DNA of 64,000 nucleotides. Origin: Shigella phage ESh25. This document shows positions 2 to 15,854 of this stretch, piece after piece. A program made the position numbers and the translations under genes. Under the pieces are notes generated by a model. That model was not told the origin of the DNA. It ran no database searches and saw nothing but the letters and a program-made list of their open reading frames with translations. The stretch lies in sequence record ON528735; one strand, written 5' to 3'. Numbering within the stretch: the first letter of the stretch is position 1; each line of letters opens with the position of its first letter.

Positions 2-1090
2 AAATCTTTAATTCAGGCTCTGCTCGCTCGGTATTATTTGGAAAATTACGAAGGTAAAATTCTTATCATTGTTCCAACAACTGCTCTAACAACTCAGATG
101 GCTGATGACTTCGTTGACTATCGTTTATTCAGTCATGCAATGATAAAGAAAATTGGTGGCGGAGCATCAAAAGATGATAAATATAAAAATGATGCACCAG
201 TCGTTGTTGGTACATGGCAAACTGTAGTTAAACAACCAAAAGAATGGTTCTCACAGTTTGGAATGATGATGAATGATGAATGTCATCTTGCTACAGGAAA
301 AAGTATTTCATCTATCATATCAGGTTTAAATAACTGCATGTTCAAATTTGGTCTATCTGGTTCATTACGTGATGGCAAAGCCAATATCATGCAGTATGTT
401 GGAATGTTTGGTGAAATATTTAAGCCAGTAACGACTTCTAAATTAATGGAAGATGGACAAGTAACTGAGCTAAAAATTAATAGTATTTTTCTTCGCTATC
501 CCGATGAATTCACTACTAAATTAAAGGGAAAAACTTATCAAGAAGAAATAAAAATTATTACTGGGCTTAGTAAAAGAAATAAATGGATCGCTAAATTAGC
601 TATTAAGCTTGCGCAAAAAGATGAAAACGCTTTTGTCATGTTTAAACATGTATCACATGGTAAAGCTATTTTCGATTTAATTAAAAATGAATACGATAAA
701 GTTTATTACGTATCAGGGGAAGTTGATACCGAAACCCGCAATATAATGAAAACCTTAGCTGAAAATGGTAAAGGAATAATTATAGTAGCTAGTTATGGTG
801 TATTTTCTACTGGTATTTCAGTTAAAAATCTGCATCACGTTGTTTTAGCGCACGGTGTTAAATCAAAAATCATTGTATTACAAACAATCGGTCGTGTATT
901 ACGTAAGCATGGTTCTAAGACAATAGCAACAGTCTGGGACCTCATAGATGATTGTGGTGTTAAGCCAAAATCTGCTAATACGAAAAAGAAATATGTTCAT
1001 TTGAACTATCTTTTAAAACACGGCATTGATCGTATTCAGCGCTACGCAGATGAAAAATTTAATTACGTAATGAAAACAGTTAATTTATAA
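2..1090 (+). CDS. uvsW: UvsW SF2 DNA helicase, 5'-truncated at window edge (C-terminal ~360 aa)
   Basis: Frame open to window start; DExH box (NDECH) and motif VI-like QTIGRVLR; sits upstream of uvsW.1/uvsY as in T4. Confidence 0.8.
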   Translation, partial: KSLIQALLARYYLENYEGKILIIVPTTALTTQMADDFVDYRLFSHAMIKKIGGGASKDDKYKNDAPVVVGTWQTVVKQPKEWFSQFGMMMNDECHLATGKSISSIISGLNNCMFKFGLSGSLRDGKANIMQYVGMFGEIFKPVTTSKLMEDGQVTELKINSIFLRYPDEFTTKLKGKTYQEEIKIITGLSKRNKWIAKLAIKLAQKDENAFVMFKHVSHGKAIFDLIKNEYDKVYYVSGEVDTETRNIMKTLAENGKGIIIVASYGVFSTGISVKNLHHVVLAHGVKSKIIVLQTIGRVLRKHGSKTIATVWDLIDDCGVKPKSANTKKKYVHLNYLLKHGIDRIQRYADEKFNYVMKTVNL

Positions 1091-1115
1091 GGGCTTCGGC
1101 CCTTTGGAGAAAAAG

Positions 1116-1349
1116 ATGTTACTAGAATTTAAACAATTTCTTTATGAAGCTTCTATTGATGAATTTATGGGTAAAATTGCCTCTTGTCAAACATTAGAAG
1201 GTTTAGAAGAACTTGAAGCTTATTATAAGAAAAGAGTTAAAGAAACTGAATTAAAAGATACTGATGACATCTCTGTGAGAGATGCTTTGGCAGGAAAAAG
1301 AGCTGAATTAGAAGATTCAGACGATGATGAAGTAGAAGAAAGCTTTTAA
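1116..1349 (+). CDS. uvsW.1: small acidic protein, UvsW.1-like (77 aa from the ATG)
   Basis: ORF directly after uvsW; GGAG Shine-Dalgarno before ATG at 1116; track start at 1104 is a TTG. Confidence 0.6.
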   Translation: MLLEFKQFLYEASIDEFMGKIASCQTLEGLEELEAYYKKRVKETELKDTDDISVRDALAGKRAELEDSDDDEVEESF

Positions 1350-1404
1350 ATTAAAAAAGGCCCAACCAAAAAGGAAGGGCCAAAACTATAGACTAAAGGT
1401 CACA

Positions 1405-1572
1405 CTATAGCAAAAGTTGTGTTTCATTTAGTTGTTCTTCCGAACTTTCTGAAACTGATAGTTCTTTAATGTAATTATAACAAGGCCCAGGATGTACAGG
1501 ACCTTTGTCTGTTTCAACAACCAATGCAGAATCGATTGGAGTTTTACAGACAACGCAAATCTTATCTGACAT
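1405..1572 (-). CDS. small hypothetical protein (55 aa) with CxxC...HPGPC motif
   Basis: ORF below the track cutoff found by eye; GGAG 6 nt upstream of ATG; position matches T4 uvsY.-2. Confidence 0.4.
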   Translation of the reverse strand: MSDKICVVCKTPIDSALVVETDKGPVHPGPCYNYIKELSVSESSEEQLNETQLLL

Positions 1573-1600
1573 GATTGTCTCCTCTAAATTATATATCTAT

Positions 1601-1825
1601 TTATATAACTCTCATATGCATATCAATGCCCATATCTTTGGAATAAAAATATTCATCAAGATATCCAGCAAATTTTCCTTTAACATAAAGTACATCTTCA
1701 CCGCATGGGTGGTCGGCCAGGATACGAATATCCTGACGCTTGAGATTATACTTTTTCATTAAGAATTGAATTTCCGTTTCGAATTCTTCTTCATAATTAA
1801 AAGCATCATCAATGCTATATTTCAT
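1601..1825 (-). CDS. hypothetical protein (74 aa), uvsY.-1 position
   Basis: Start overlaps the uvsY stop (translational coupling). Confidence 0.6.
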   Translation of the reverse strand: MKYSIDDAFNYEEEFETEIQFLMKKYNLKRQDIRILADHPCGEDVLYVKGKFAGYLDEYFYSKDMGIDMHMRVI

Positions 1826-2238
1826 TATTTTCCAGCCTCAAATGCTCGCATGTCTTGAATATGCTTAATAGCAAATCCGCGTGATTTAATAGCATCAAGA
1901 GCTCCGCTACAGAAATCCAATAAAATTCCCCAATATTGTAATGAAGTATCAACTTTTAAAACATCCTTATCAGCTGATAGAACTGTCTTCATTTCTGATT
2001 TCTCATAACGGTCCATACTAAATTCATCACCATCTCCTCGTCCCGAGTAGTAGTCTAATTTAGCTTTAAGAGCAACTTTTTTCTGTGCTTCAATTCTAAG
2101 CATTTCCTTTTTAATACTTGAATGCTTATTGAGCCATTTACTATATAACATCACATTATTAGCTGCTTCATACTGCAATTTAGTCGAATCTATAAACACA
2201 TCTTTCTTCAATTCTTCTTGAAGATCTTCTAATCTCAT
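1825..2238 (-). CDS. uvsY: UvsY recombination mediator protein
   Basis: 137 aa, same length and position as T4 UvsY; middle-promoter-like element upstream. Confidence 0.9.
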   Translation of the reverse strand: MRLEDLQEELKKDVFIDSTKLQYEAANNVMLYSKWLNKHSSIKKEMLRIEAQKKVALKAKLDYYSGRGDGDEFSMDRYEKSEMKTVLSADKDVLKVDTSLQYWGILLDFCSGALDAIKSRGFAIKHIQDMRAFEAGK

Positions 2239-2278
2239 ATTGTTCTCTATTCAATTGTTATTGGATGGACTTAGATTC

Positions 2279-2306
2279 ATTATACCACGTATAAACGTGA
2301 AGCATT
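2279..2306 (-). promoter_or_regulatory. middle-promoter-like element for uvsY (MotA box plus -10)
   Basis: Minus strand reads AATGCTTCA, 13 nt, TATAAT; matches MotA-box consensus (a/t)(a/t)TGCTT(t/c)A at about -30. Confidence 0.5.
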
Positions 2307-2703
2307 ATACTCTATTACTGGAAGCCAGTTGTAGTTTTATCTGCTCAATATCATCAGGGTTATCGATGACTGAAAAGCGTATTTCTACTATCAAAGTATA
2401 ATCATCATAAACCGGTATTACATTAACTGCTAATTTATCAATACGTGGCTCATAGTTTCTTACTGCGCTTTCGATGTTACGCTCAACTGTGTCAGCAGTA
2501 AGAGGAGTCATATTTTCAAAAAGCTGGTCTGATAAATCACATCCAAATTCAGGGTCAAACGGTCTTGAACCTTTTCTTGTTGTAATAATTCCCAAAAGAC
2601 TGTTTTTAATTGACCTTAATCCAAGCGATCTGGAAACGTCTTTGTCCCAGTCCATTTTCATTTCTGGGTCGATGTCAGAATAAAGCTTATTAATATTTGC
2701 CAT
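2305..2703 (-). CDS. 25: baseplate wedge protein gp25
   Basis: 132 aa; same length, position and recalled sequence as T4 gp25. Confidence 0.9.
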   Translation of the reverse strand: MANINKLYSDIDPEMKMDWDKDVSRSLGLRSIKNSLLGIITTRKGSRPFDPEFGCDLSDQLFENMTPLTADTVERNIESAVRNYEPRIDKLAVNVIPVYDDYTLIVEIRFSVIDNPDDIEQIKLQLASSNRV

Positions 2704-3329
2704 TATAGTAACTCAAAGAACTCTTTGAGGCCTCTTATTACATGAGCATGGGTTTTTCCACACTCTGGACATTTAATTGGAACAGCCAAATAAACGGTAG
2801 GCTTTAAAAGCATATCTTTTATAGCTACAATATCTGACTCTGTGATGATAGAATATAAATCTTCTAGTTCCTTTTCATTTAAGTCTTCAACTGGAATGCT
2901 TTCCCCGTTAGCATGAATCGTTTCTATGCATGATACTATCATGTGGGCTATATTTTTATCATCAAAAATTTTAGGGTATCGGAATTTAATTTTAATGTCA
3001 CCCAGTGTATACCAGAGGTCTTCTGGTGCATCTATTTGTGTATGTAATAGATTTATATGGGTTGGTATTTCAGTTCCACAGGTGCACTTCCAGGAGTTTT
3101 CGTGATTAACTTCACCAAGAGAATGTGCCCATAAATGAATCAACAGTAGTTCTGATTCTTGGCGGTTTAAATCTTTTGCATTTGTGCAGTCTTTGATTAG
3201 CTTTTTAACAATTACTTCTACAGAACCATTATTTTTGGCAGTAATAAGTTCTAGATATTCTTTAAGCGTGAATGCGCGACAGTTGATTATTTTAGAACCA
3301 ACTCTCACATCAAATTTGTATTCATACAT
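2703..3329 (-). CDS. 26: baseplate hub protein gp26
   Basis: 208 aa; T4 order 25-26 divergent from 51; 1-nt TAATG overlap with gene 25. Confidence 0.85.
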
Positions 3330-3350
3330 ATTTAGCTCCTTTATTTATCA

Positions 3351-3362
3351 TATTTATAAATA
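3351..3362. promoter_or_regulatory. divergent late promoters (TATAAATA on both strands) for genes 26 and 51
   Basis: Palindrome TATTTATAAATA gives TATAAATA at 3355-3362 (+) and 3351-3358 (-), about 20-25 nt before each start codon. Confidence 0.6.
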
Positions 3363-3379
3363 GAATAAAAGGAGCATCT

Positions 3380-4132
3380 ATGGCAAACATTATTCGTTGT
3401 AAATTACCAGATGGTGTTCATCGTTTTAAACCATTTACGGTAGAAGATTATCGAGATTTTTTGTTAGTTCGAAACGATATAGAACATCGGTCACCACAAG
3501 AACAAAAAGAAGTAATTGCTGATTTAATTGCTGATTATTTTGGAGACTATCCAAAGACTTGGCAACCATTTATATTTTTGCAGGTATTTGTAGGGTCAAT
3601 AGGTAAAACTAAAGTACCAGTCACATTTGTATGTCCAAAATGTAAAAAAGAAAAGACAGTTCCATTTGAAATATACCAAAAAGAATTAAAGGAGCCTGTT
3701 TTTGATATAGCTAATGTTAAAATTAAATTAAAGTTTCCTTCTGAGTTTTATGAAAATAAAGCAAAGATGATTACTGAAAATATTCATTCTGTTCAAGTAG
3801 ATGAAATATGGTATGATTGGAAGGAAATTAGCGAATCAAGTCAAATAGAACTTGTTGATGCCATCGAGATAGAAACATTAGAAAAAATTCTCGATGCAAT
3901 GAATCCTATTAATTTAACATTGCACATGTCGTGTTGTGATAAGTACATTAAAAAATACACTGATATAGTAGATGTGTTTAAGCTATTAGTTAATCCAGAT
4001 GAGATATTTACTTTTTATCAAATTAATCACACACTCGTAAAAAGTAATTATAGCTTAAATTCAATAATGAAAATGATTCCTGCCGAGCGCGGATTCGTAT
4101 TAAAACTGATTGAGAAGGATAAACAACAATGA
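3380..4132 (+). CDS. 51: baseplate hub assembly protein gp51
   Basis: 250 aa, position after gene 26; AAGGAG before ATG. Confidence 0.85.
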
Positions 4133-5301
4133 GTATGTTGCAACGCCCCGGATATCCAAATCTCAGCGTTAAATTATTTGAGAGTTATGACGCTTGGAGT
4201 AATAATAGATTTGTTGAATTAGCTGCTACTATTACCACATTAACTATGCGTGACTCTCTTTATGGTCGAAATGAAGGAATGCTACAATTTTATGATTCTA
4301 AAAACATTCATACAAAAATGGATGGAAATGAAATAATTCAGATTTCTGTAGCTAATGCAAACGATATTAATAATGTTAAAACACGAATTTATGGATGCAA
4401 GCATTTTTCCGTGTCAGTAGATTCAAAAGGCGATAACATCATTGCTATTGAATTGGGAACTATTCATTCTATAGAAAATCTTAAATTTGGTAGACCGTTT
4501 TTCCCTGATGCAGGTGAATCTATAAAAGAAATGCTTGGCGTCATTTATCAAGACCGTACATTATTAACTCCAGCTATAAATGCTATAAATGCTTATGTTC
4601 CTGATATTCCGTGGACTAGCACATTTGAAAACTATTTGTCATATGTAAGAGAAGTTGCTCTAGCTGTAGGAAGTGACAAATTTGTATTTGTGTGGCAAGA
4701 CATCATGGGAGTTAACATGATGGACTATGATATGATGATAAATCAAGAACCATATCCAATGATTGTAGGTGAGCCAACTTTAATAGGTCAATTCATCCAA
4801 GAATTGAAATATCCATTAGCATATGATTTTGTTTGGTTGACTAAATCAAACCCGCATAAACGTGATCCAATGAAAAATGCTACTATCTATGCGCATTCGT
4901 TTTTGGATTCTTCATTGCCAATGATTACTACAGGAAAGGGTGAAAACTCTATTGTAGTGTCAAGGTCAGGTGCTTATTCTGAAATGACTTATAGGAATGG
5001 CTATGAAGAAGCTATTCGTCTTCAAACTATGGCGCAATATGATGGCTATGCTAAATGTTCTACTGTCGGTAATTTTAACTTGACTCCTGGTGTTAAAATT
5101 ATTTTTAATGATAGTAAAAACCAATTTAAAACAGAATTTTACGTTGATGAAGTTATCCATGAATTATCAAATAATAATTCAGTAACTCATCTATATATGT
5201 TCACTAATGCAACGAAACTGGAAACAATAGACCCAGTTAAGGTTAAAAATGAATTTAAATCTGATACTACCACTGAAGAAAGTAGTTCTTCCAATAAGTA
5301 A
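4129..5301 (+). CDS. 27: baseplate hub protein gp27
   Basis: 390 aa; T4 order 51-27-28-29. Confidence 0.85.
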
Positions 5302-5782
5302 TAAAGAAGTTTCTATTCCTAAGATGGGTCTTAAACATTATAACATTTTAAAAGATGTTAAAGGTCCTGATGAAAATTTAAAACTTCTTATTGATTCTAT
5401 TTGTCCGAATTTATCACCGGCAGAAGTTGATTTCGTTTCTATTCATTTATTGGAATTTAATGGAAAGATTAAATCTCGTAAAGAAATAGATGGTTATACT
5501 TATGATATTAATGACGTTTATGTATGTCAAAGATTGGAATTTCAATACCAAGGAAATACATTTTATTTTAGACCTCCTGGAAAATTTGAACAATTTTTAA
5601 CTGTAAGCGATATGTTATCCAAATGCTTGCTTAAGGTCAATGATGAAGTTAAAGAAATTAATTTTCTTGAGATGCCAGCATTTGTTTTAAAATGGGCAAA
5701 TGATATTTCTACAACTTTAGCAATTCCTGGCCCTAATGGTCCAATAACCGGAATTGGCAATATTATTGGATTATTTGAATGA
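5249..5782 (+). CDS. 28: baseplate hub distal protein gp28
   Basis: 177 aa, same as T4 gp28; overlaps the 3' end of gene 27. Confidence 0.75.
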
Positions 5783-7551
5783 AAAAGCCACAAGAAATGC
5801 AAACGATGCGTAGAAAAGTTATTTCAGATAATAAACCAACACAGGAAGCGGCTAAATCCGCTTCTAATACTTTATCTGGTCTTAATGACATTTCTACAAA
5901 ATTAGATGATGCTCAAGCTGCCTCTGAATTAATAGCTCAGACTGTTGAAGAAAAATCAAATGAAATAGTTGGAGCAATTGATAACGTTGAAAGCGCAGTA
6001 AGTGATACTACTGCCGGTTCTGAGTTAATTGCCGAGACTGTTGAAATTGGCAATAATATCAATAAAGAAATAGGCGAATCACTCGGAAGCAAATTAGATA
6101 AATTAACGAGTTTATTAGAACAAAAAATTCAAACAGCTGGAATTCAACAGACTGGAACGAGTTTAGCAGTAGTCGAAAATGCTATTCCTGTTAAAGTCGT
6201 CGAGGATGATACAGCTGAATCTGTGGGTCCTTTATTACCGGCTCCTGAAGCAGTTAATAATGATCCTGATGCTGATTTTTTCCCTACTCCTAAGCCAATT
6301 GAACCAAAACAAGAGTCTCCAGAAGAGAAGCAAAAAAGAGACGCATTTAACTTAAAATTATCTCAAGCTTTAGATAAATTAACAAAGACAGTTGATTTCG
6401 GATTTAAGAAATCTATTTCAATTACTGATAAAATATCTAGCATGCTATTTAAGTATACCGTCAGTGCTGCTATTGAAGCTGCTAAAATGGTTGCATTGAT
6501 AATGGCTGTTGTTATTGGAATAGACCTGCTGATGGTTCATTTTAAATACTGGTCAGATAAATTTTCAAAAGCCTGGGATTTATTTAGCACTGATTTTAAA
6601 ACTTTCTCAAGCGAAACAGGAACTTGGGGCCCTTTATTACAAAGCATCTTTGAATCTATTGATGAAATTAAAAAGTTCTGGGAAGCTGGAGATTGGGGCG
6701 GATTAACAGTAGCTATTGTTGAAGGGCTTGGAAGTGTTCTTTATAATTTAGGAGAGCTTATTCAACTTGGAATGGCTAAATTATCTGCGGCAATTCTTCG
6801 AGTTATTCCTGGTATGAAGGATACTGCTGATGAAGTAGAAGGAAGAGCACTAGAAAATTTCCAAAATACTACAAATGCTTCTCTTAGCAAAGAAGACCAA
6901 GAAAAAGTTGCAAATTATCAATATAAAAGAATGAATGGCGATCTTGGTCCAATAGCAAAAGGGCTAGACAAAATTGCGAACTGGAAAACTCGTGCATCTA
7001 ACTGGATTCGTGGTGTTGATAATAAAGAAGCACTAACGACTGATGAAGAGAGAGCAGAGGAAGAAGAAAAATTAAAGCAACTTTCTCCGGAGGAAGCTAA
7101 AATTGCTTTAATGAAAGCTAATGAAGCTCGTGCTGCTATGAATCGTTTTGATGAATACGCTAATTCAGCTGATATGAGTAAAGACTCAACGGTTAAATCA
7201 GTTGAATCTGCCTATGAAGACCTTAAAAAACGGATGGATGACCCGGATTTAAATAATTCACCGGCAGTTAAAAAAGAACTTGCTTCTAGATTTGCTAAAA
7301 TTGATGCTACTTATCAAGAGCTCAAGAAAAATCAGCCTAATGCCAAACCTGAAACTTCTGCTAAATCACCAGAAGCGAAACAGGTCCAGGTTATTGAAAA
7401 GAACAAAGCACAGCAAGCTCCTGTTCAACAAGCATCTCCTTCGATCAATAATACTAATAATGTTATTAAGAAAAATACTGTCGTTCATAATATGACACCC
7501 GTAACGAGCACGACTGCTCCTGGTGTATTTGATGCGACTGGAGTTAATTAA
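5779..7551 (+). CDS. 29: baseplate hub / tail-length determining protein gp29
   Basis: 590 aa, same as T4 gp29; coiled-coil-rich N-terminal half. Confidence 0.85.
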   Translation: MKKPQEMQTMRRKVISDNKPTQEAAKSASNTLSGLNDISTKLDDAQAASELIAQTVEEKSNEIVGAIDNVESAVSDTTAGSELIAETVEIGNNINKEIGESLGSKLDKLTSLLEQKIQTAGIQQTGTSLAVVENAIPVKVVEDDTAESVGPLLPAPEAVNNDPDADFFPTPKPIEPKQESPEEKQKRDAFNLKLSQALDKLTKTVDFGFKKSISITDKISSMLFKYTVSAAIEAAKMVALIMAVVIGIDLLMVHFKYWSDKFSKAWDLFSTDFKTFSSETGTWGPLLQSIFESIDEIKKFWEAGDWGGLTVAIVEGLGSVLYNLGELIQLGMAKLSAAILRVIPGMKDTADEVEGRALENFQNTTNASLSKEDQEKVANYQYKRMNGDLGPIAKGLDKIANWKTRASNWIRGVDNKEALTTDEERAEEEEKLKQLSPEEAKIALMKANEARAAMNRFDEYANSADMSKDSTVKSVESAYEDLKKRMDDPDLNNSPAVKKELASRFAKIDATYQELKKNQPNAKPETSAKSPEAKQVQVIEKNKAQQAPVQQASPSINNTNNVIKKNTVVHNMTPVTSTTAPGVFDATGVN

Positions 7552-8654: not shown

Positions 8655-9619
8655 TGTATTCTTTAGAGGAATTTAATAATCAAGCAATAAACGCAGATTT
8701 CCAACGTAATAATATGTTCAGCTGTGTTTTTGCTACAACTCCATCAACTAAAAGCTCTTCGTTGATAAGTTCAATTAGCAACTTTTCTTATAATAACTTG
8801 GGCCTAAATTCAGATTGGTTAGGATTAACTCAAGGCGATATTAATCAGGGAATTACTACGCTAATTACAGCTGGCACACAAAAACTGATAAGAAAATCAG
8901 GGGTTAGTAAATATCTTATTGGTGCCATGAGTCAACGTACAGTTCAAAGTTTATTAGGCTCATTTACAGTTGGTACATATTTAATTGACTTCTTTAACAT
9001 GGCATATAACTCATCTGGATTGATGATATACTCTGTAAAAATGCCAGAGAATAGATTATCCTATGAAACTGACTGGAACTATAATTCTCCTAATATTCGT
9101 ATAACTGGGAGAGAATTAGATCCTTTGGTTATTTCATTTAGAATGGATTCAGAAGCTTGTAACTATCGTGCAATGCAAGACTGGGTTAACGCTGTTCAAG
9201 ACCCAGTAACTGGATTGCGTGCTTTGCCGCAAGATGTCGAGGCAGATATTCAGGTTAATCTTCATTCTCGCAATGGATTACCACATACTGCGGTGATGTT
9301 CACTGGATGCATTCCAGTGTCCGTAAGCGCTCCTGAGTTATCATATGATGGAGATAACCAAATAACTACATTTGATGTTACTTTTGCGTATAGAGTGATG
9401 CAGGCTGGAGCAGTTGATAGACAAGCTGCCCTTGAATGGCTTGAATCTGCTACTATAAATGGTATTCAAAGCGTTCTCGGAAATAGTGGAGGTGTTACTG
9501 GACTATCTAATTCGCTTTCACGACTTAGTAGATTAGGGGGAACTGCAGGAAGCATTTCAAATATTAATACTATGACAGGAATTGTCAATTCGCAAAGTAA
9601 AATATTAGGAGCAATATAA
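8654..9619 (+). CDS. 54: baseplate tail-tube initiator gp54
   Basis: 321 aa; ATGA-type overlap with gene 48; terminator follows. Confidence 0.85.
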   Translation: MYSLEEFNNQAINADFQRNNMFSCVFATTPSTKSSSLISSISNFSYNNLGLNSDWLGLTQGDINQGITTLITAGTQKLIRKSGVSKYLIGAMSQRTVQSLLGSFTVGTYLIDFFNMAYNSSGLMIYSVKMPENRLSYETDWNYNSPNIRITGRELDPLVISFRMDSEACNYRAMQDWVNAVQDPVTGLRALPQDVEADIQVNLHSRNGLPHTAVMFTGCIPVSVSAPELSYDGDNQITTFDVTFAYRVMQAGAVDRQAALEWLESATINGIQSVLGNSGGVTGLSNSLSRLSRLGGTAGSISNINTMTGIVNSQSKILGAI

Positions 9620-9623
9620 CAAT

Positions 9624-9653
9624 GGGGACCTTTCGGTCCCCATATTTTTATTT
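9624..9653 (+). terminator. rho-independent terminator after gene 54
   Basis: 7-bp stem GGGGACC/GGTCCCC with 4-nt loop, followed by ATATTTTTATTT. Confidence 0.7.
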
Positions 9654-9938
9654 ACGGAATGAAATAAAAGCAGCAACTGAAGCAACAGAGGTTTCTTCAA
9701 TATAAACCTCAATTTTTACCGGAGCTTCTGACTCAAATTTACCTGTTACTACACCTTGGAAAATACTTTCAGTCTGTTCTGGCTTTGAAAAATTTTCAGA
9801 AGGAAAAATTCCGAACTTTTTATCGGTTCCGAAAATTTTAATAAATTCATCATAAACTGCTTCATTGAAAGCGTTATCAGCAGGAATAACGCCTTCAACT
9901 ACAAGTTCTTGACCTAAAAAGCGTAAAGAAGATTTCAT
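9648..9938 (-). CDS. hypothetical protein (96 aa) downstream of the alt genes
   Basis: ORF with GAGGA Shine-Dalgarno; early promoter cassette directly upstream. Confidence 0.6.
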   Translation of the reverse strand: MKSSLRFLGQELVVEGVIPADNAFNEAVYDEFIKIFGTDKKFGIFPSENFSKPEQTESIFQGVVTGKFESEAPVKIEVYIEETSVASVAAFISFRK

Positions 9939-9969
9939 TTTGTGTTCCTCATGTTATGTCAGTAAGATT

Positions 9970-9999
9970 ACTATAACACAACACGAGGGACTTGTAAAC
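9970..9999 (-). promoter_or_regulatory. sigma70-type early promoter (-35 GTTTAC, -10 TATAGT); part of a duplicated 54-bp cassette
   Basis: Minus strand GTTTAC, 17-18 nt, TATAG(T); 53/54 identical to 25270-25323. Confidence 0.55.
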
Positions 10000-12056
10000 T
10001 ACATTTTGAACTTTTTAGACATTCCGTTGATGTTAACCAAAGAAGCTAAGATTTGAGAAACTTCGCTTTCCTCTTCTTTTGATTCTTCTACAAGGAATTG
10101 ATTAAATCCAGCCATTGGACGAAATTCACCAGTTTCCATTAGATGGTCGCCATCATATACTGATTCTTCTAATTGTTCAGAAGGAGGAACGATTGTACCT
10201 TCGATTAGATACTTATTATAAGCAGTTTCTTTCATAAAGTAAGTACTTACTTTATTAATCTTCAGTAAAATTCCACGTGGTAGAATAACTTCAGCTTCTG
10301 ATGGAAATCCTGACAAATGACCTGGAACGATAACTTTAACTCGTTCAGCTCCTTTAATTACCATACCCACGCTAGTTTCTGCATCTTCATTAGCATATGT
10401 AGAATGACTACCCATATGCATCAAATCTTCTGCATCAACGGAACCTTCTCCTTCACCAGAAAATACTGCGCCGGAATCATCTAGAGCCATATAGTTTTTA
10501 CCATGCTCACCGAAGATATTTGGTTTAAGCGATGTGGATACGAAGTTCTTGAAATAGAACATTTTGTTTTCAATGTTATGACGCAAAGTTTTAAATGTAA
10601 CTTCTTGTCCACGGTAAAGTGTAGTTCCTGGAGGAAGAACTGAACCTTTAGCGAATGCAGAATCAAGCGTCTCGATGTGCTTAATAGCACGTTCCATATA
10701 TTCTTCACGGGTAGAATCCGGTTTACCTAAAAGGAACGAGTTCATTTCAACATATGAATCTGCGCAATAATCTTCAATTACATCAGACTCAGCCTGAGTC
10801 AATCCTTTTGGAGTTACTTCAGTGCTTGCATATTCATACGCCTGAGCAGCGGATTCATCAATTAATTTATAAATTCCATTCATTACAAATTGAATAATAG
10901 CTGTCTTTTCATCTGGCGTAGCTTTAGAACCTTTAACTAAATCATTGATAATTTTCTTAATAACATCAAAACTATTAGAAATATTAATATCAGCAAGATC
11001 GCTTAAAATTTTATCAGTTTTATAATCAAAGAATTCTTTATTCTTTAAATATTCTTGAGAACCTTGATATGTTATATCGCTCTGCAACTTGATAGATGGA
11101 TCACGTAAACGTGCATGGGCTAATGCAATATGATTTCGGAAGCTTTCTAGTTCATAATCGTTAGATTTAAAACGAGAAGCACTTCTCATACCACCGATAG
11201 CTCCTTTGCTGAAGTTTGAACCAATCTGAATAACGCCAGAGTTCATTGGTCCTTCTGCTTTATATACCGGAACTTTAGATTCAAACTCTTGATATTTCTT
11301 AGCAGCGAAGCTATCACCCTGAAGTGAAGCATCAACAGTAGAATATTGAGCTTGTGCTGCTAATCGACGACTAATTTTAGTTTTCTGAATAACAGCTTGA
11401 TCCGTACGCTTATCATTTTCTAAAGCAATAGAAGCAGCAACTGCGACAGCTTTAGGAACAGCATTACCTGTTTTAACGTCTACATAAACATCACCGACTT
11501 TCGATTCAACTTTTGTGAATAACTCAGTTGAAATAGGAGGTACACCTGGAATGTCTTCTAAATTGGCATTTTTACGGTAAACCATAATATATGCATATTT
11601 CTTATCATAGTCCCAGATTTCCTTTAAAAGAACATATCGACCTGCTCCTTTAGTACGTACTAAACGGTCAGCAATAACTTGCATTTGACGAGCAGCGCCG
11701 TTTGTTTTACTTTTTAGTACGCGGAATAGGCATGCATCAATTTTATACTGTTTCATTGTTTGAAGAGCAGTATCAAAAACCGCATTAATGACACCAATTG
11801 GATTTCCACCCAAGTTTTTAAGCTTAACTAACGATAATTTCTCGTTGACGCCTATCATTACGATATGCATCATTTTGTCGCCTGGCTTAACGTTTTTATT
11901 CGTATCACCGCCAGAGGTGTATGTACAAAATCGAAATCCAGGAAGAACGCTTTCTTCACCGGCTTGAATAGCAAAAATTTGAGGTATTTTATGCTTAGGA
12001 TTTAAGTTAACAACCGGCGCCGAAGCGCCGTCAAATAATTCTGTAATAAGTTCCAT
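9999..12056 (-). CDS. Alt-family ADP-ribosyltransferase paralogue (685 aa)
   Basis: C-terminal R-S-E ART triad (YRGQ, FVSTS, EAEVILPRG); N-terminal ~230 aa similar to the adjacent alt; divergent middle. Confidence 0.8.
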   Translation of the reverse strand: MELITELFDGASAPVVNLNPKHKIPQIFAIQAGEESVLPGFRFCTYTSGGDTNKNVKPGDKMMHIVMIGVNEKLSLVKLKNLGGNPIGVINAVFDTALQTMKQYKIDACLFRVLKSKTNGAARQMQVIADRLVRTKGAGRYVLLKEIWDYDKKYAYIMVYRKNANLEDIPGVPPISTELFTKVESKVGDVYVDVKTGNAVPKAVAVAASIALENDKRTDQAVIQKTKISRRLAAQAQYSTVDASLQGDSFAAKKYQEFESKVPVYKAEGPMNSGVIQIGSNFSKGAIGGMRSASRFKSNDYELESFRNHIALAHARLRDPSIKLQSDITYQGSQEYLKNKEFFDYKTDKILSDLADINISNSFDVIKKIINDLVKGSKATPDEKTAIIQFVMNGIYKLIDESAAQAYEYASTEVTPKGLTQAESDVIEDYCADSYVEMNSFLLGKPDSTREEYMERAIKHIETLDSAFAKGSVLPPGTTLYRGQEVTFKTLRHNIENKMFYFKNFVSTSLKPNIFGEHGKNYMALDDSGAVFSGEGEGSVDAEDLMHMGSHSTYANEDAETSVGMVIKGAERVKVIVPGHLSGFPSEAEVILPRGILLKINKVSTYFMKETAYNKYLIEGTIVPPSEQLEESVYDGDHLMETGEFRPMAGFNQFLVEESKEEESEVSQILASLVNINGMSKKFKM

Positions 12057-12059
12057 GAT

Positions 12060-14156
12060 TTATCCTTGAACGAACTTGTAAGGCATGTTTGTAATATCTA
12101 TGCAAGACGCAATAATTCCAAGAGATGATTCTACTTTCTGTTTAACGTTTGATGAAACAAATGATGCAAAGTCAACTCTGTCTTCTATTTCAATATCACC
12201 TGTCATTGCAACTACTTCACCGGTTTCCATTAAATGGTCTCCGTCATAGATTACCGATTCGGTGAGCTCTTCCGTGGTCATAACTTCAGCTTGAATGAGT
12301 TTTGTATTATTAGATGTTGTTCCGTCATTATTAGAAGCATCAGTTATTTTATTAACTTTGACCATCAATCCACGCGGTAGAATAACTTCAGCTTCTGTTG
12401 CTATTCCGAGACTTCCTGGATATACAACATTAACTTTATGAGCTCCATCAATTGCCCATCCTATTTGAACTTTAACGTATTCAGGATTTTCTTTATACGC
12501 TCTTATTTCGTTTGGATTAATAGTTATTCCTTCTTCATTTTTATCAACTGTTAATTCATTGCGAGCTTCTGGTTCTAAAAGACCAATACCAGCATGTGTG
12601 ATTCCAAAACGTCCAAAAATGATAGGAGTTAAAGAAGTAGATACAAAATTTCTGAAGTAGAACACTTTATTTTTAACTAACGCTTCATATATAGGAGCAG
12701 TCATACTTTGAGCACGATAAACTGTAATGCCTTCTGGTATACGGTCACCATTTTCAAAAGCTGAATCTAAGTTATTTATAGCAGATTCAATTTCTTTTTC
12801 ACTCATTACATCATATCGTTCTGGATTGTAGCGGCCTAAAAGAAGATTATTGATGTCAGTATATCCTGAACCGCAATATTCTCTAATGCCACGCTTTTGC
12901 GATGGAGTATATTTAGAACCATCACGGGCAATAGTAATATCAATCATTGGACCTGCACCAATTCCGGAAAAGCTATAAATCATTCGTTTGAGGAATTTAG
13001 TTTTTGCTGCGTTCCAAGAATTTTTAGTTATTTCTTCCCAGACTTCATCTGGCTGCCCTTTACGAGTTTTATTATGTTTATCAAGCCAATTATCTTTATA
13101 TTCTTCAAAGAATTGATTAACAGCTGCTGCGTATTTCTCTAAACATTTTATTGAAGTAGTTGGTTCATTTTTAATCGCATTAAGAATTACATCTTTAATT
13201 TTTTCAGAAACTTCATTAACCTCACTTTTTGAAAAGAATTTATAGTCATAGTGAAGTTCATCTGCAGTTCCTTCGGCAATAATTTTTGCTGCCTTAGTTT
13301 TAGAAGCTAATGAATTAATTCCAAGCTTCATTTCTTCTGCTTCGGGAATTAAAGGAGCGGTAGCAGGTTTATTAAAATTAGCTGCTGTAGATTCATACTT
13401 CTGGAATAATTCACTTTCAAATCTAGAAGATTCCAATGATTGACTTTGCGCAATTGCTCTACGGGAAATTTTAACTTTAACGATTACAGCTTGGTCAGAA
13501 CGTTTATCATTTTCTTGTGCAATAGATGCTGCAATTGCCTCATTTTTAGTTACTTGAGCTCCAGTATCTTTATTGATATAAACATCACCAACCTTCGATT
13601 CAACTTTAGTAAAGAGCTCGGTACTAATTTCAGGAACTCCTGGAATGTCTTCTAATGATACGTTTTTGCGATGTATAAGAATATATGCATACTTTTTATC
13701 GTAATCCCAGAGTTCCTTAAGAAGGACGTATCTGCCACCTGAACGACTACGGATAAGTCTATCAGCAATAACTTGAATTTGTCGAGCTTGGCCAGCAGTT
13801 TTAGACTTAAGAATACGAAGCATACAAGCATCAATTTTATATTGACGCATTGTTTGCATTGCAACAGTAAAAACTGAATTGATATAATTAATTGGGCTTG
13901 GACCAAGACCTTTTAATTTAGCAATTGAACCTTTAGCAGTTAATGTAAAAGGAACAATATGCATCATTTTATCGCCCATCTTTAAATCACGATTAGTATC
14001 ACCTCCAGATGTATAGGTACATAAACGAAAGCCTGGTTGTTCAATTGCATCATCAACATGAACTGAAAAAATTTGCGGTATTTTCTTCTTTGGATTTAAG
14101 TTTGTAATCGGAAGAGTAGTATCTTCGTCAAATAATTCTGTAATAAGTTCCATCAT
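12060..14156 (-). CDS. alt: Alt ADP-ribosyltransferase (injected internal head protein that modifies host RNA polymerase)
   Basis: 698 aa; R-S-E motifs YRAQ, FVSTS, EAEVILPRG; late promoter upstream; T4 position between 54 and 30. Confidence 0.85.
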   Translation of the reverse strand: MMELITELFDEDTTLPITNLNPKKKIPQIFSVHVDDAIEQPGFRLCTYTSGGDTNRDLKMGDKMMHIVPFTLTAKGSIAKLKGLGPSPINYINSVFTVAMQTMRQYKIDACMLRILKSKTAGQARQIQVIADRLIRSRSGGRYVLLKELWDYDKKYAYILIHRKNVSLEDIPGVPEISTELFTKVESKVGDVYINKDTGAQVTKNEAIAASIAQENDKRSDQAVIVKVKISRRAIAQSQSLESSRFESELFQKYESTAANFNKPATAPLIPEAEEMKLGINSLASKTKAAKIIAEGTADELHYDYKFFSKSEVNEVSEKIKDVILNAIKNEPTTSIKCLEKYAAAVNQFFEEYKDNWLDKHNKTRKGQPDEVWEEITKNSWNAAKTKFLKRMIYSFSGIGAGPMIDITIARDGSKYTPSQKRGIREYCGSGYTDINNLLLGRYNPERYDVMSEKEIESAINNLDSAFENGDRIPEGITVYRAQSMTAPIYEALVKNKVFYFRNFVSTSLTPIIFGRFGITHAGIGLLEPEARNELTVDKNEEGITINPNEIRAYKENPEYVKVQIGWAIDGAHKVNVVYPGSLGIATEAEVILPRGLMVKVNKITDASNNDGTTSNNTKLIQAEVMTTEELTESVIYDGDHLMETGEVVAMTGDIEIEDRVDFASFVSSNVKQKVESSLGIIASCIDITNMPYKFVQG

Positions 14157-14176
14157 AGCCTCTCTAGTGTTTATTC

Positions 14177-14184
14177 TATTTATA
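14177..14184 (-). promoter_or_regulatory. late promoter TATAAATA upstream of alt
   Basis: Minus strand TATAAATAG about 20 nt before the alt ATG; Alt is a late, packaged protein. Confidence 0.55.
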
Positions 14185-14189
14185 AAATT

Positions 14190-14206
14190 AAAGGCCCGAA
14201 GGCCTT
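14190..14206 (-). terminator. hairpin terminator (GGCC-UUCG-GGCC plus U-rich tail)
   Basis: Directly after the stop of the 62-aa ORF; followed on minus strand by TTTAATTTTAT. Confidence 0.5.
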
Positions 14207-14394
14207 TAGTAATCTAGTGGTAAGAGAGTACGATATATTTCAAACTTTGGTCCTTTTTCATAGGCATCAAATGTTTCTGTAAATTTATTATAAGCGTATG
14301 CATCTACAAATTCGAGAATGACTTGTGATACAGAAGTAGAAACATCTCCACCTTCTTTTTGAGCAATGACAATTGTTTCTAAGTAAGCTTTCAT
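14206..14394 (-). CDS. hypothetical protein (62 aa), alt.1 position
   Basis: Start overlaps the ligase stop. Confidence 0.55.
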   Translation of the reverse strand: MKAYLETIVIAQKEGGDVSTSVSQVILEFVDAYAYNKFTETFDAYEKGPKFEIYRTLLPLDY

Positions 14395-15854
14395 AAACCA
14401 GTTACCTCATGAAAATCACCAAATACATCCTCGAATGTATTAGCTTTAGTTTTATCTTCACGTAAACGAATCGCAATCGGAAGAAATAATTTAACGTAAT
14501 CAGTGCGGCCATCAGATTTTAACCAACCGTTGCATTCGCACTCTAGAATTTTTCCAATATAATAATTTTGGTTTTCCATAATGCGAGTACGGTCAAGTTC
14601 ATGTGATTTTACGCCGGCTTTGTCTTTTAAGCCTGAACCAGCATTTACCTTAATTTTTCCACACTCTGACTCAAGAATAAATCCACCCGCTTTAGTAGGG
14701 TCTTTACGGTGAGGATAAATTCCTACAATTTTTAAATCAACATCAATTACTTCTTTAAATTTATAAAGATTTTTTGAACGAGCATTTTCCCATAATCCAT
14801 CGATATTTTTGAGAATAATACCTTCAAGACCTTGGTCAATATACTTTTTATAAATTACCTTAGCTTCATCTAGGTTATTTACTACCTGGTTTTCAATTAA
14901 AATTACTTTATCATAACCTGATGTCATTTGTTCTAGTTTAGAAAAACGTACATCATATTTCAAACGAAATGCAGGAAGACCGTATATTTCTACCAACGGG
15001 ACATAATCCCAAACCTGAAACTTCATGCATTGAGCTTCTTTTTCAGAAATGGTTCCTTTTAAGGATTTATTGGCGATTCCATTAGAAGTAGTACGAGATT
15101 CCGCTACTTCGGCGAATTCTTTAGCTTTACTAATTTCAGGATAAGCATTAAAAAGAAAATCTAGGCCTTCTGGTTCCTTTTTAACTTGCTCATGGTATAC
15201 CAATTCGCCATCAATTAACACACCTTCTGGATGAATCTGGCGGGCTTCAGCAGTCATTTTGATTAACTCTTCCTTAAGAAGATCTAATCCTAGATATTCA
15301 TTACCAGCTCGTGATAAAAGACGAACATCATCTAATTCATCGCCTCGGACTTCAGCAAAACACCGGGCTCCATCTGCTTTTAACTGCGCAAAGGCTGGAA
15401 ACTTGATATTCTTACTAATGCCCTTTTCATCATAAGAACTTGCCAGCATTTGAGGTTGTTCAGGAATTAAACCTGGCCAAACTTTGTTTGCAATAGATAC
15501 TGAAGCACCGCATTCAAGGTCTCGCATCATCACTCGACGCAAAACTTCAACATCATCCTTTTTACCATCAGTGATATATCCAGTTAATTCCTCAATTGCA
15601 GCATTTCCAGTCAATTTCCGAGTAGCTAACGTGAATTCAATGAAATCAAGCATATCGGTAATGGTCAGCATTCCAAAACTCTGGGTAGCAATACCAGGTT
15701 TAGGCCATTTCTTGATATAATACTGTAACCCACGAGAATAAGTCAGACGATATACTCGTTTAAGCAATTCATTATCTTTATTCTTTTCAAGAATTGCTTG
15801 CTTCTGCTTAGTTGATCCAATAGATGCTATTTCATTCAGAATTTTAAGAATCAT
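14391..15854 (-). CDS. 30: ATP-dependent DNA ligase gp30
   Basis: 487 aa, same as T4 ligase; KADGAR adenylation motif. Confidence 0.95.
   Translation of the reverse strand: MILKILNEIASIGSTKQKQAILEKNKDNELLKRVYRLTYSRGLQYYIKKWPKPGIATQSFGMLTITDMLDFIEFTLATRKLTGNAAIEELTGYITDGKKDDVEVLRRVMMRDLECGASVSIANKVWPGLIPEQPQMLASSYDEKGISKNIKFPAFAQLKADGARCFAEVRGDELDDVRLLSRAGNEYLGLDLLKEELIKMTAEARQIHPEGVLIDGELVYHEQVKKEPEGLDFLFNAYPEISKAKEFAEVAESRTTSNGIANKSLKGTISEKEAQCMKFQVWDYVPLVEIYGLPAFRLKYDVRFSKLEQMTSGYDKVILIENQVVNNLDEAKVIYKKYIDQGLEGIILKNIDGLWENARSKNLYKFKEVIDVDLKIVGIYPHRKDPTKAGGFILESECGKIKVNAGSGLKDKAGVKSHELDRTRIMENQNYYIGKILECECNGWLKSDGRTDYVKLFLPIAIRLREDKTKANTFEDVFGDFHEVTGL

Follow-up and report, generated by a model that had tools for sequence, protein, structure and literature searches.

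The window analysed here, a 64,000-nt stretch of the genome of Shigella phage ESh25 (record ON528735; all coordinates are positions in this window), is a segment of a Tequatrovirus (T4-like) genome that carries two adjacent full-length genes of the Alt family, alt (copy A) and alt.-2, also called Alt2 (copy B). The two genes probably encode functional arginine-type mono-ADP-ribosyltransferase paralogues that are co-transcribed late and are both packaged and injected, copy B acting on targets of its own. The analysis established directly that the genes are intact and under purifying selection, as well as their homology, catalytic motifs, fold and distribution, and the lesion carried by phage T4. 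The gene pair is real and already known, being annotated in hundreds of genomes, and it is re-identified here rather than discovered. The additions of the current study are small: the precise form of the T4 lesion, the frequencies of the intact and deleted states, a measure of purifying selection, the match to orthologous genes in Dhakavirus, and the extraction of fitness data for Alt2 of phage Bas37.

Two intact Alt-family genes

The region from 9600 to 14450 shows 97–98% identity to NBEco003, wV7, RB14, RB51 and other phages, and is covered to at least 80% in 353 phage records. The minus strand carries, in order, gene 30 (DNA ligase), alt.1, copy A, copy B and alt.-3, after which gene 54 follows on the plus strand. 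An earlier sequence-only reading had described two open reading frames (ORFs) of 698 and 685 amino acids, spaced by 3 nt. Both are in the ORF list, and the spacing is confirmed by the junction itself, which reads TAA (12062–12060)-ATC-ATG (12056–12054), while the start of the longer ORF has been corrected. This ORF opens with two adjacent ATGs (14156 and 14153), the first of which is absent in phage ECP52; since, in addition, the ITE-6 site of T4 Alt is counted from MELITE, sequence comparison places the true start at the second ATG, giving a protein of 697 residues that matches the annotation of RB14 and T2.

The assignment of both genes to the Alt family was upheld by matches to Pfam PF03496 (ADPrib_exo_Tox; gathering threshold 23.4 bits), with 129 bits (E = 1.9e-37) for copy A and 71.2 bits (E = 9.6e-20) for copy B, and by full-length matches to phrog_802 (residues 1–696, E = 4e-273, and residues 1–685, E = 9e-256, respectively). 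All of the R-S-E triad motifs named in the sequence-only reading were located in both proteins: YRAQ (479–482), FVSTS (503–507) and EAEVILPRG (587–595) in copy A, and YRGQ (481–484), FVSTS (505–509) and EAEVILPRG (587–595) in copy B. In the Alt-family profile, the arginine of the YR motif and the ExE motif line up with the catalytic residues, R and [Q/E]xE, of C3larvin and of the iota-like toxin BECa, and the catalytic domain has the ADP-ribosyltransferase (ART) fold. A sequence search of the PDB returned no solved Alt structure, distant toxin ARTs alone being matched. The AlphaFold model of copy B (mean predicted local distance difference test score, pLDDT, 75) comprises an alpha/beta N-terminal domain (residues ~12–225), a disordered linker (225–239), a helical region (250–470), a well predicted ART core (475–625) and a disordered C-terminal tail.

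Aligned by BLASTP, copies A and B are 41% identical (E = 4e-164). Over the full length of T4 Alt, copy A shows 70–72% identity and copy B 41%. The orthologue check proposed in the sequence-only reading showed copy A to be the positional orthologue of T4 alt, and copy B the intact form of the short T4 ORFs alt.-1 and alt.-2.

The damaged second copy of T4

Whether T4 carries both copies had been left undecided; it does not, and holds only a frameshifted and deleted remnant of the second. The reference T4 genome has a single alt gene (682 residues, NP_049811), followed by alt.-1 and alt.-2 (61 and 67 residues) and then alt.-3. The two short ORFs correspond to the 5' 350 nt of copy B, with the same start, the same junction to alt and the same GC hairpin. 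Translation of the remnant gives MELITELFDGASAPVV...TSGGDTNK before the frame is lost, which matches the N-terminus of copy B and not that of copy A, and the PHROG families of T4 alt.-1 and alt.-2 likewise match copy B better than copy A. Two lesions separate the T4 sequence from the intact gene. The first, within an A5 run (window context 11886–11906), shifts the frame by −1; the second is a deletion of 1,699 bp between 9-bp direct repeats, CTAAAAAGT. Neither lesion is present in the window, where copy B is an uninterrupted ORF of 685 codons. Because the remnant aligns to copy B with a frameshift and a repeat-bounded deletion, the comparison identifies T4 alt.-1 and alt.-2 as the stump of a full-length gene, and not as the partial duplication of alt given in a note to the T4 record. 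Thus T4 does not hold the same divergent pair in characterised form, and neither copy in the window lacks catalytic residues.

In 401 phage records, T2, RB14, RB32 and RB51 among them, the segment deleted in T4 is present at a nucleotide identity of at least 94%, while the T4-type deletion junction was found in 91 of the 499 records that match the region. With copy B intact in about 80% of related records, the two-gene state is therefore the norm and T4 the exception.

Copy A exists as two allele classes, with identical N-terminal domains (100%), near-identical tails, divergent centres and partly divergent catalytic domains. The class of the window and T2 was found in 319 phage records, and that of T4, JoYop and SfPhi01 in 175. 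In JoYop and SfPhi01 a T4-type copy A stands beside an intact copy B; therefore, the modules assort independently.

Selection and ancestry

In the ten genomes compared, copy B always encodes 685 residues, at synonymous divergences (dS) of up to 0.34. Its mean ratio of nonsynonymous to synonymous substitution rates (dN/dS), taken over 45 pairs, is 0.045, close to the value of 0.052 for copy A within the allele class of the window. The idea that copy B is a pseudogene was rejected on this ratio, the uninterrupted ORF and the distribution of the gene. The copy B protein is 97–99% identical to its nearest relatives. Copy-B-like proteins of 624, 528 and 415 residues, also 97–99% identical to copy B, occur in the protein database, the shortest on 14 contigs, one of them 166 kb in length; they may represent further independent truncations of Alt2 or artefacts of gene calling.

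Dhakavirus WG01 carries three tandem full-length alt paralogues at the same location (1012–7124 of the segment compared). ORF199, which adjoins alt.-3, is 49% identical to copy B, and ORF200 matches copy A (66% identity), while the third paralogue, ORF201 (631 residues), is without a counterpart in the window. Since WG01 holds separate orthologues of copies A and B, the sequence evidence places the duplication before the split of Tequatrovirus and Dhakavirus, with both lineages maintained since. Across the Tevenvirinae at least four distinct types of Alt central module were seen.

Modular differences between the two copies

Pairwise alignment of the two proteins bore out the similar N-termini and differing centres and C-termini that had been described. 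In 30-column windows of the alignment, identity is 53–80% over columns 1–240 and falls to 13–30% in the central region (~240–415); it is 20–57% in the catalytic domain, with only 3–20% in the loops between the STS and ExE motifs, and 20–50% in the C-terminus, apart from an invariant island, YDGDHLMETGE. The central modules of about 175 residues are, by sequence, unrelated, without detectable similarity. The module of copy A is 66% identical to WG01 ORF200. That of copy B is 47% identical to its counterpart in WG01 ORF199, and gave zero phmmer hits among 1.84 billion cluster representatives, in which the Alt family is evidently represented by other central modules. A parallel mosaic is seen between copy A and T4 Alt, which share about 100% identity over the N-terminal 240 residues and a nearly identical C-terminal propeptide, while the central module has 14–37% identity (32% for the module overall) and the catalytic domain 40–85%.

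This arrangement suggests a division of labour in which the constant N-terminal domain and the propeptides would serve assembly and delivery, and the variable centre and loops would choose the substrate. The residues before ExE also differ, being GFPSEAE in copy B, GIATEAE in copy A and APSNEME in T4 Alt, so that an aromatic residue stands four positions upstream in copy B alone. In C3-like toxins an aromatic residue near this position of the ADP-ribosylating turn-turn (ARTT) loop helps substrate recognition, and the aromatic residue of copy B fits a role of the variable loops in substrate choice.

Transcription and translation signals

Directly after the terminator of alt.1 lies a T4-type late promoter box, TATAAATA (14177–14184), that ends 20 nt before the first ATG of copy A. 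The whole block of terminator, TATAAATA, Shine-Dalgarno sequence and ATG is identical across eleven phages including T4, as is the junction between the two genes, CAAGGATAAATCATG, in which the AAGGA of copy B is carried inside the end of copy A. The octamer is not enriched in the window (11 found against 9.4 expected), so that the promoter assignment is supported by where the box lies and by its conservation, and not by its frequency. No terminator-like site was found on the gene strand between the two copies. T4 alt is expressed late (PMC9697503), and this box most likely drives a single late transcript of alt, alt2 and alt.-3. Translation of copy B probably starts from its AAGGA and is coupled to that of copy A, as the 3-nt spacer suggests. 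Late co-transcription with coupled translation is the simplest reading, because the upstream block and the junction are conserved and no terminator intervenes.

The proposal of a single late promoter shared by both genes thus holds as regards the conserved upstream box and the uninterrupted strand between the genes; it had missed a second exact TATAAATA inside copy A. Seven of eight alleles of the 697-residue class have this internal box, which lies some 720 nt before the start of copy B; JE01 and T4-type alleles lack it. It could act as a late promoter within the gene or have arisen by chance. As a dedicated promoter of copy B it was set aside and left as a possibility only: one phage that shares the allele lacks it, as do all T4-type alleles that retain copy B, and the octamer is not enriched in the window.

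Near the 5' end of copy B lies a perfect hairpin that 11 phages share without change, the T4 remnant among them, and that copy A lacks at the equivalent point. The hairpin could influence how well copy B is translated or how stable its mRNA is. A role as an attenuator was considered and not adopted, as the surrounding 101-nt region folds ordinarily (z = −0.33) and there is no U tract.

Putative packaging signals and in vivo data

The T4 capsid carries about 40 copies of Alt, which are injected with the DNA. The prohead protease gp21 cuts T4 Alt at two sites, ITE-6 and LTE-619 (PMC5694885), and the removal of 6 residues is also noted in GenBank X15811. The targets of Alt in the host are Arg265 on a single RNA polymerase alpha subunit and a number of further host proteins (PMC9697503, PMC2988021, PMC9026906). 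In the window, both copies begin with MELITE and have LxE/SV (the slash marks the cleavage position) at the aligned C-terminal position beside the conserved island, as LTE/SV in copy A and LEE/SV in copy B. Because the gp21 sites are kept in both, packaging and processing of the two proteins is likely.

BASEL phages have the pair annotated as Alt and Alt2, and in one of these, Bas37, transposon insertion data bear on the roles of the two genes. According to the HIDEN-SEQ preprint (10.1101/2025.11.20.689424), T4 Alt helps to evade the Mokosh type I defence, and Alt of Bas37 (bas37_0033, at the position of copy A) is no substitute for it. The figures for Alt2 (bas37_0032) are undiscussed in the main text of the preprint and were taken, like those for Alt, from its supplementary table 7. 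On K-12, Alt2 has a TA-site saturation of 0.71 ('Intermediate') and a mean count of 44.5, against 0.92 ('Non-essential') and 203.6 for Alt (10.1101/2025.11.20.689424). On the clinical strain CFE331, insertions in Alt are depleted (log2 fold change −1.56, adjusted p 0), while Alt2 is not (+0.12; 10.1101/2025.11.20.689424). As the insertion profiles on K-12 and CFE331 differ, Alt and Alt2 are not interchangeable in vivo in Bas37.

Proposed roles and alternative explanations

Each protein can be divided into four parts, namely an N-terminal domain of about 240 residues starting at MELITE, a helical centre of about 175 residues, a catalytic domain like those of C3, VIP2 and Vis, and a C-terminal propeptide behind LxE/S. 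By the precedent of T4 Alt, the prohead core would incorporate both proteins, gp21 protease would trim both ends of each, and the products would stay in the head, to be injected with the DNA and to ADP-ribosylate host proteins before phage genes are expressed. Copy A would act as T4 Alt does, and its modification of Arg265 of RNA polymerase alpha, along with other targets, is plausible by orthology. Copy B, through its different centre and active-site loops, would modify a different set of host proteins; a distinct target fits both the unrelated central module and the CFE331 data from Bas37, where Alt is needed and Alt2 is not. Late co-transcription, packaging, injection, enzyme activity and the distinct target are the steps that we infer. 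Tentatively, Alt2 might be a second capsid-delivered effector with targets that do not overlap those of Alt, for example a counter-defence enzyme directed at immunity or at a protein of translation or RNA metabolism. If this were so, a whole host-takeover function that T-even phages inject would have escaped study, T4 having deleted Alt2, and the loss of Alt2 may account for some of the sensitivities specific to T4 relative to T2, T6 and the RB phages.

Several observations weigh against the picture of two injected enzymes. T4 and some 90 further records manage without copy B, which is accordingly dispensable in at least some conditions. The [L/I]xE motifs are short, with 7–10 in each protein, so that retained sites are suggestive and not proof. 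In virions of SH7, the sole virion proteome of a two-copy phage that was found in the literature, mass spectrometry listed 13 proteins, one of them the A-position copy with 2 peptides, and did not detect copy B, although the data set is too shallow to count as a negative. The internal TATAAATA could give copy B a separate transcript, and the conserved GC hairpin at codons 9–14 could lower its expression.

The SH7 result, taken with expression in the late unit, would suit an active copy B that is left out of the particle and acts late in the producing cell, for instance on host or phage proteins during assembly; so would the fitness cost of Alt2 insertions even on K-12, where injected Alt is dispensable. 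This alternative is nevertheless rather unlikely, given that MELITE is identical to the propeptide of Alt, that LxE/S is kept within the conserved C-terminal island, that the N-terminal 240 residues are the most conserved part held in common with Alt, and that the SH7 data are as shallow as noted. The likeness in domain order, catalytic motifs, processing sites and N-terminal domain (53–80%) could instead mean that copy B is a redundant back-up of Alt, hitting the same targets and raising the dose of injected enzyme. We consider this improbable, as the central modules are dissimilar and the STS-ExE loops only 3–20% identical, the B lineage was already distinct before Tequatrovirus and Dhakavirus diverged and has stayed so, and in Bas37 the loss of Alt is not compensated by an intact Alt2 on CFE331 and tolerance of insertions differs. 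Finally, T4 and about 91 other records that hold only the frameshifted, deleted remnant, and the B-like proteins of 415–624 residues in the database, would be expected if copy B were a decaying or catalytically dead duplicate that happens, transiently, to be intact here. Such an explanation has very little to recommend it in view of the low dN/dS (0.045) and constant length in 10 genomes at dS of up to 0.34, the intact R, STS and ExE motifs, the presence of copy B in about 80% of related records, and an orthologue in another genus.

Relation to known systems

T4 Alt and copy A share their position (from the alt.1/gene 30 side to the gene 54 side), promoter block, motifs and gp21 sites, but differ in the central module and in part of the catalytic domain, which puts copy A in a separate, T2/RB14-type allele class. 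Copy B has the architecture of T4 Alt at 41% identity, with a centre unrelated to those of T4 Alt and copy A. Its direct orthologues are alt.-2 of RB14, RB32 and RB51, Alt2 of Bas37, Bas39 and Bas40, and the second Alt-like gene of T2, which have the same length (2,058 nt) and position, are 94–99% identical, and show nothing materially different. Two or three full-length alt genes also lie between DNA ligase and alt.-3/gene 54 in 44RR (ORF187c/188c) and in WG01 (ORF199–201), and alt paralogy was noted in 2006 for T4 alt.-1/alt.-2, RB49 and 44RR (Nolan et al. 2006, PMC1524935). ModA and ModB of T4 fall within the R-S-E clade of ARTs as well and provide a precedent for phage ART paralogues with different targets (PMC5512222, PMC2988021); unlike the Alt pair, they are early, non-packaged proteins of about 200 residues, without the N-terminal packaging domain, central module and propeptides. 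The toxins Vis, C3bot, CDTa, iota/CPILE-a, VIP2 and Certhrax have the same catalytic fold and R / STS / [Q/E]xE site, but are only 14–25% identical, lack a capsid-targeting domain and use another delivery route.

Copy B is annotated in RefSeq, GenBank and BASEL as alt.-2, Alt2, alt_2 or 'Alt-like RNA polymerase ADP-ribosyltransferase'. No biochemical characterisation of Alt2 was found in the open literature, where alt.-2 surfaced only in the paralogy remark of Nolan et al. Alt is a textbook case of a phage-injected enzyme that reprograms its host, and what is known of it comes almost wholly from T4, an atypical, deleted state. About four fifths of related genomes carry a strongly conserved second Alt paralogue with a different centre, and this paralogue has gone unstudied because the reference phage lost it by a frameshift and a microhomology deletion. 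If copy B is also injected, T-even phages would deliver two different host-modifying enzymes at time zero, which is relevant to host takeover and to the search for counter-defence factors.

Features of the locus and neighbouring genes

Table 1. Genes, signals and protein segments of the alt locus in the ESh25 window.
Feature	Position	Strand	Remarks
Gene 30, DNA ligase	14391–15854	−	ORF list
alt.1, 62 aa	14206–14394	−	
Hairpin terminator AAAGGCC-TTCG-GGCCTTT with T run, ending the early/middle gene 30-alt.1 unit	14189–14208	−	same in 11 phages including T4
Late promoter box TATAAATA, T4-type, ahead of copy A	14177–14184	−	kept in all 11 compared phages including T4
Shine-Dalgarno-like GAGAGG of copy A	14159–14164	−	conserved
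Copy A, alt in its T2/RB14-type allele; 697 aa (698 aa when the first ATG, at 14156, is taken as the start)	12060–14153	−	
Copy A propeptide MELITE, gp21 site ITE-6 of T4 Alt	14136–14153	−	cleavage mapped in the T4 protein (PMC5694885)
Copy A variable central module, aa 239–410, proposed target-recognition region	12924–13439	−	alignment
Second exact TATAAATA, inside copy A	12773–12780	−	gene strand
Copy A ADP-ribosyltransferase domain; R480 (YRAQ), S505-T-S507, E587-A-E589	12270–12923	−	
Copy A C-terminal gp21 site LTE/SV, equivalent to T4 LTE-619; propeptide of ~65 residues after it	12252–12266	−	
AAGGA Shine-Dalgarno of copy B, within the last codons of copy A	12063–12067	−	
Copy B (alt.-2/Alt2), 685 aa, 2,058 nt	9999–12056	−	
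Copy B N-terminal MELITE, identical to the capsid-targeting/gp21 propeptide of Alt	12039–12056	−	
Copy B hairpin CGGCGC-UUCG-GCGCCG, codons 9–14	12015–12030	−	perfect 6-bp GC stem
Upstream CTAAAAAGT repeat, one T4 deletion breakpoint	11709–11717	−	
Copy B central helical module, aa 239–415	10812–11342	−	sequence unrelated to copy A centre
Copy B ADP-ribosyltransferase domain; R482 (YRGQ), S507-T-S509, E587-A-E589	10179–10811	−	
Copy B candidate C-terminal gp21 site LEE/SV; YDGDHLMETGE island and 54-aa tail after it	10158–10172	−	
Downstream CTAAAAAGT repeat	10010–10018	−	
alt.-3, 96 aa, DUF5498, final gene of the cluster	9648–9938	−	
Bidirectional hairpin terminator at the alt.-3/gene 54 boundary, likely end of the alt unit	9622–9643	both	

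The product of alt.1 matches Pfam PF24647 ('Phage blade protein', E = 2e-29), and the stop codon of this gene sits within the terminator hairpin ahead of the alt late promoter. At the other end of the cluster, alt.-3 always follows the last alt paralogue, including in WG01. A promoter resembling sigma-70 and T4 early promoters (TTTACA, 17 nt, TATAGT, with an upstream TG; 10 of 12 matches) lies at the stop codon of copy B, ahead of alt.-3 (9970–9998, minus strand), and alt.-3 may also be expressed early and independently, beyond its place at the tail of the late alt transcript. In Bas37, alt.-3 (bas37_0031) has a log2 fold change of −2.70 (adjusted p 0.02) in one resampling sheet of supplementary table 7 of the HIDEN-SEQ preprint, probably that of K-12 against CFT073. 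In T4, C-terminal extensions of Alt.-3 permit escape from the CmdTAC defence (PMC11618068).

Elsewhere in the window, two overlapping copies of TATAAATA stand on opposite strands (3351–3358, minus; 3355–3362, plus), mirroring a T4 pair at 1451–1462 of the T4 segment compared, between genes 26 and 51, and this arrangement looks like a divergent pair of late promoters.

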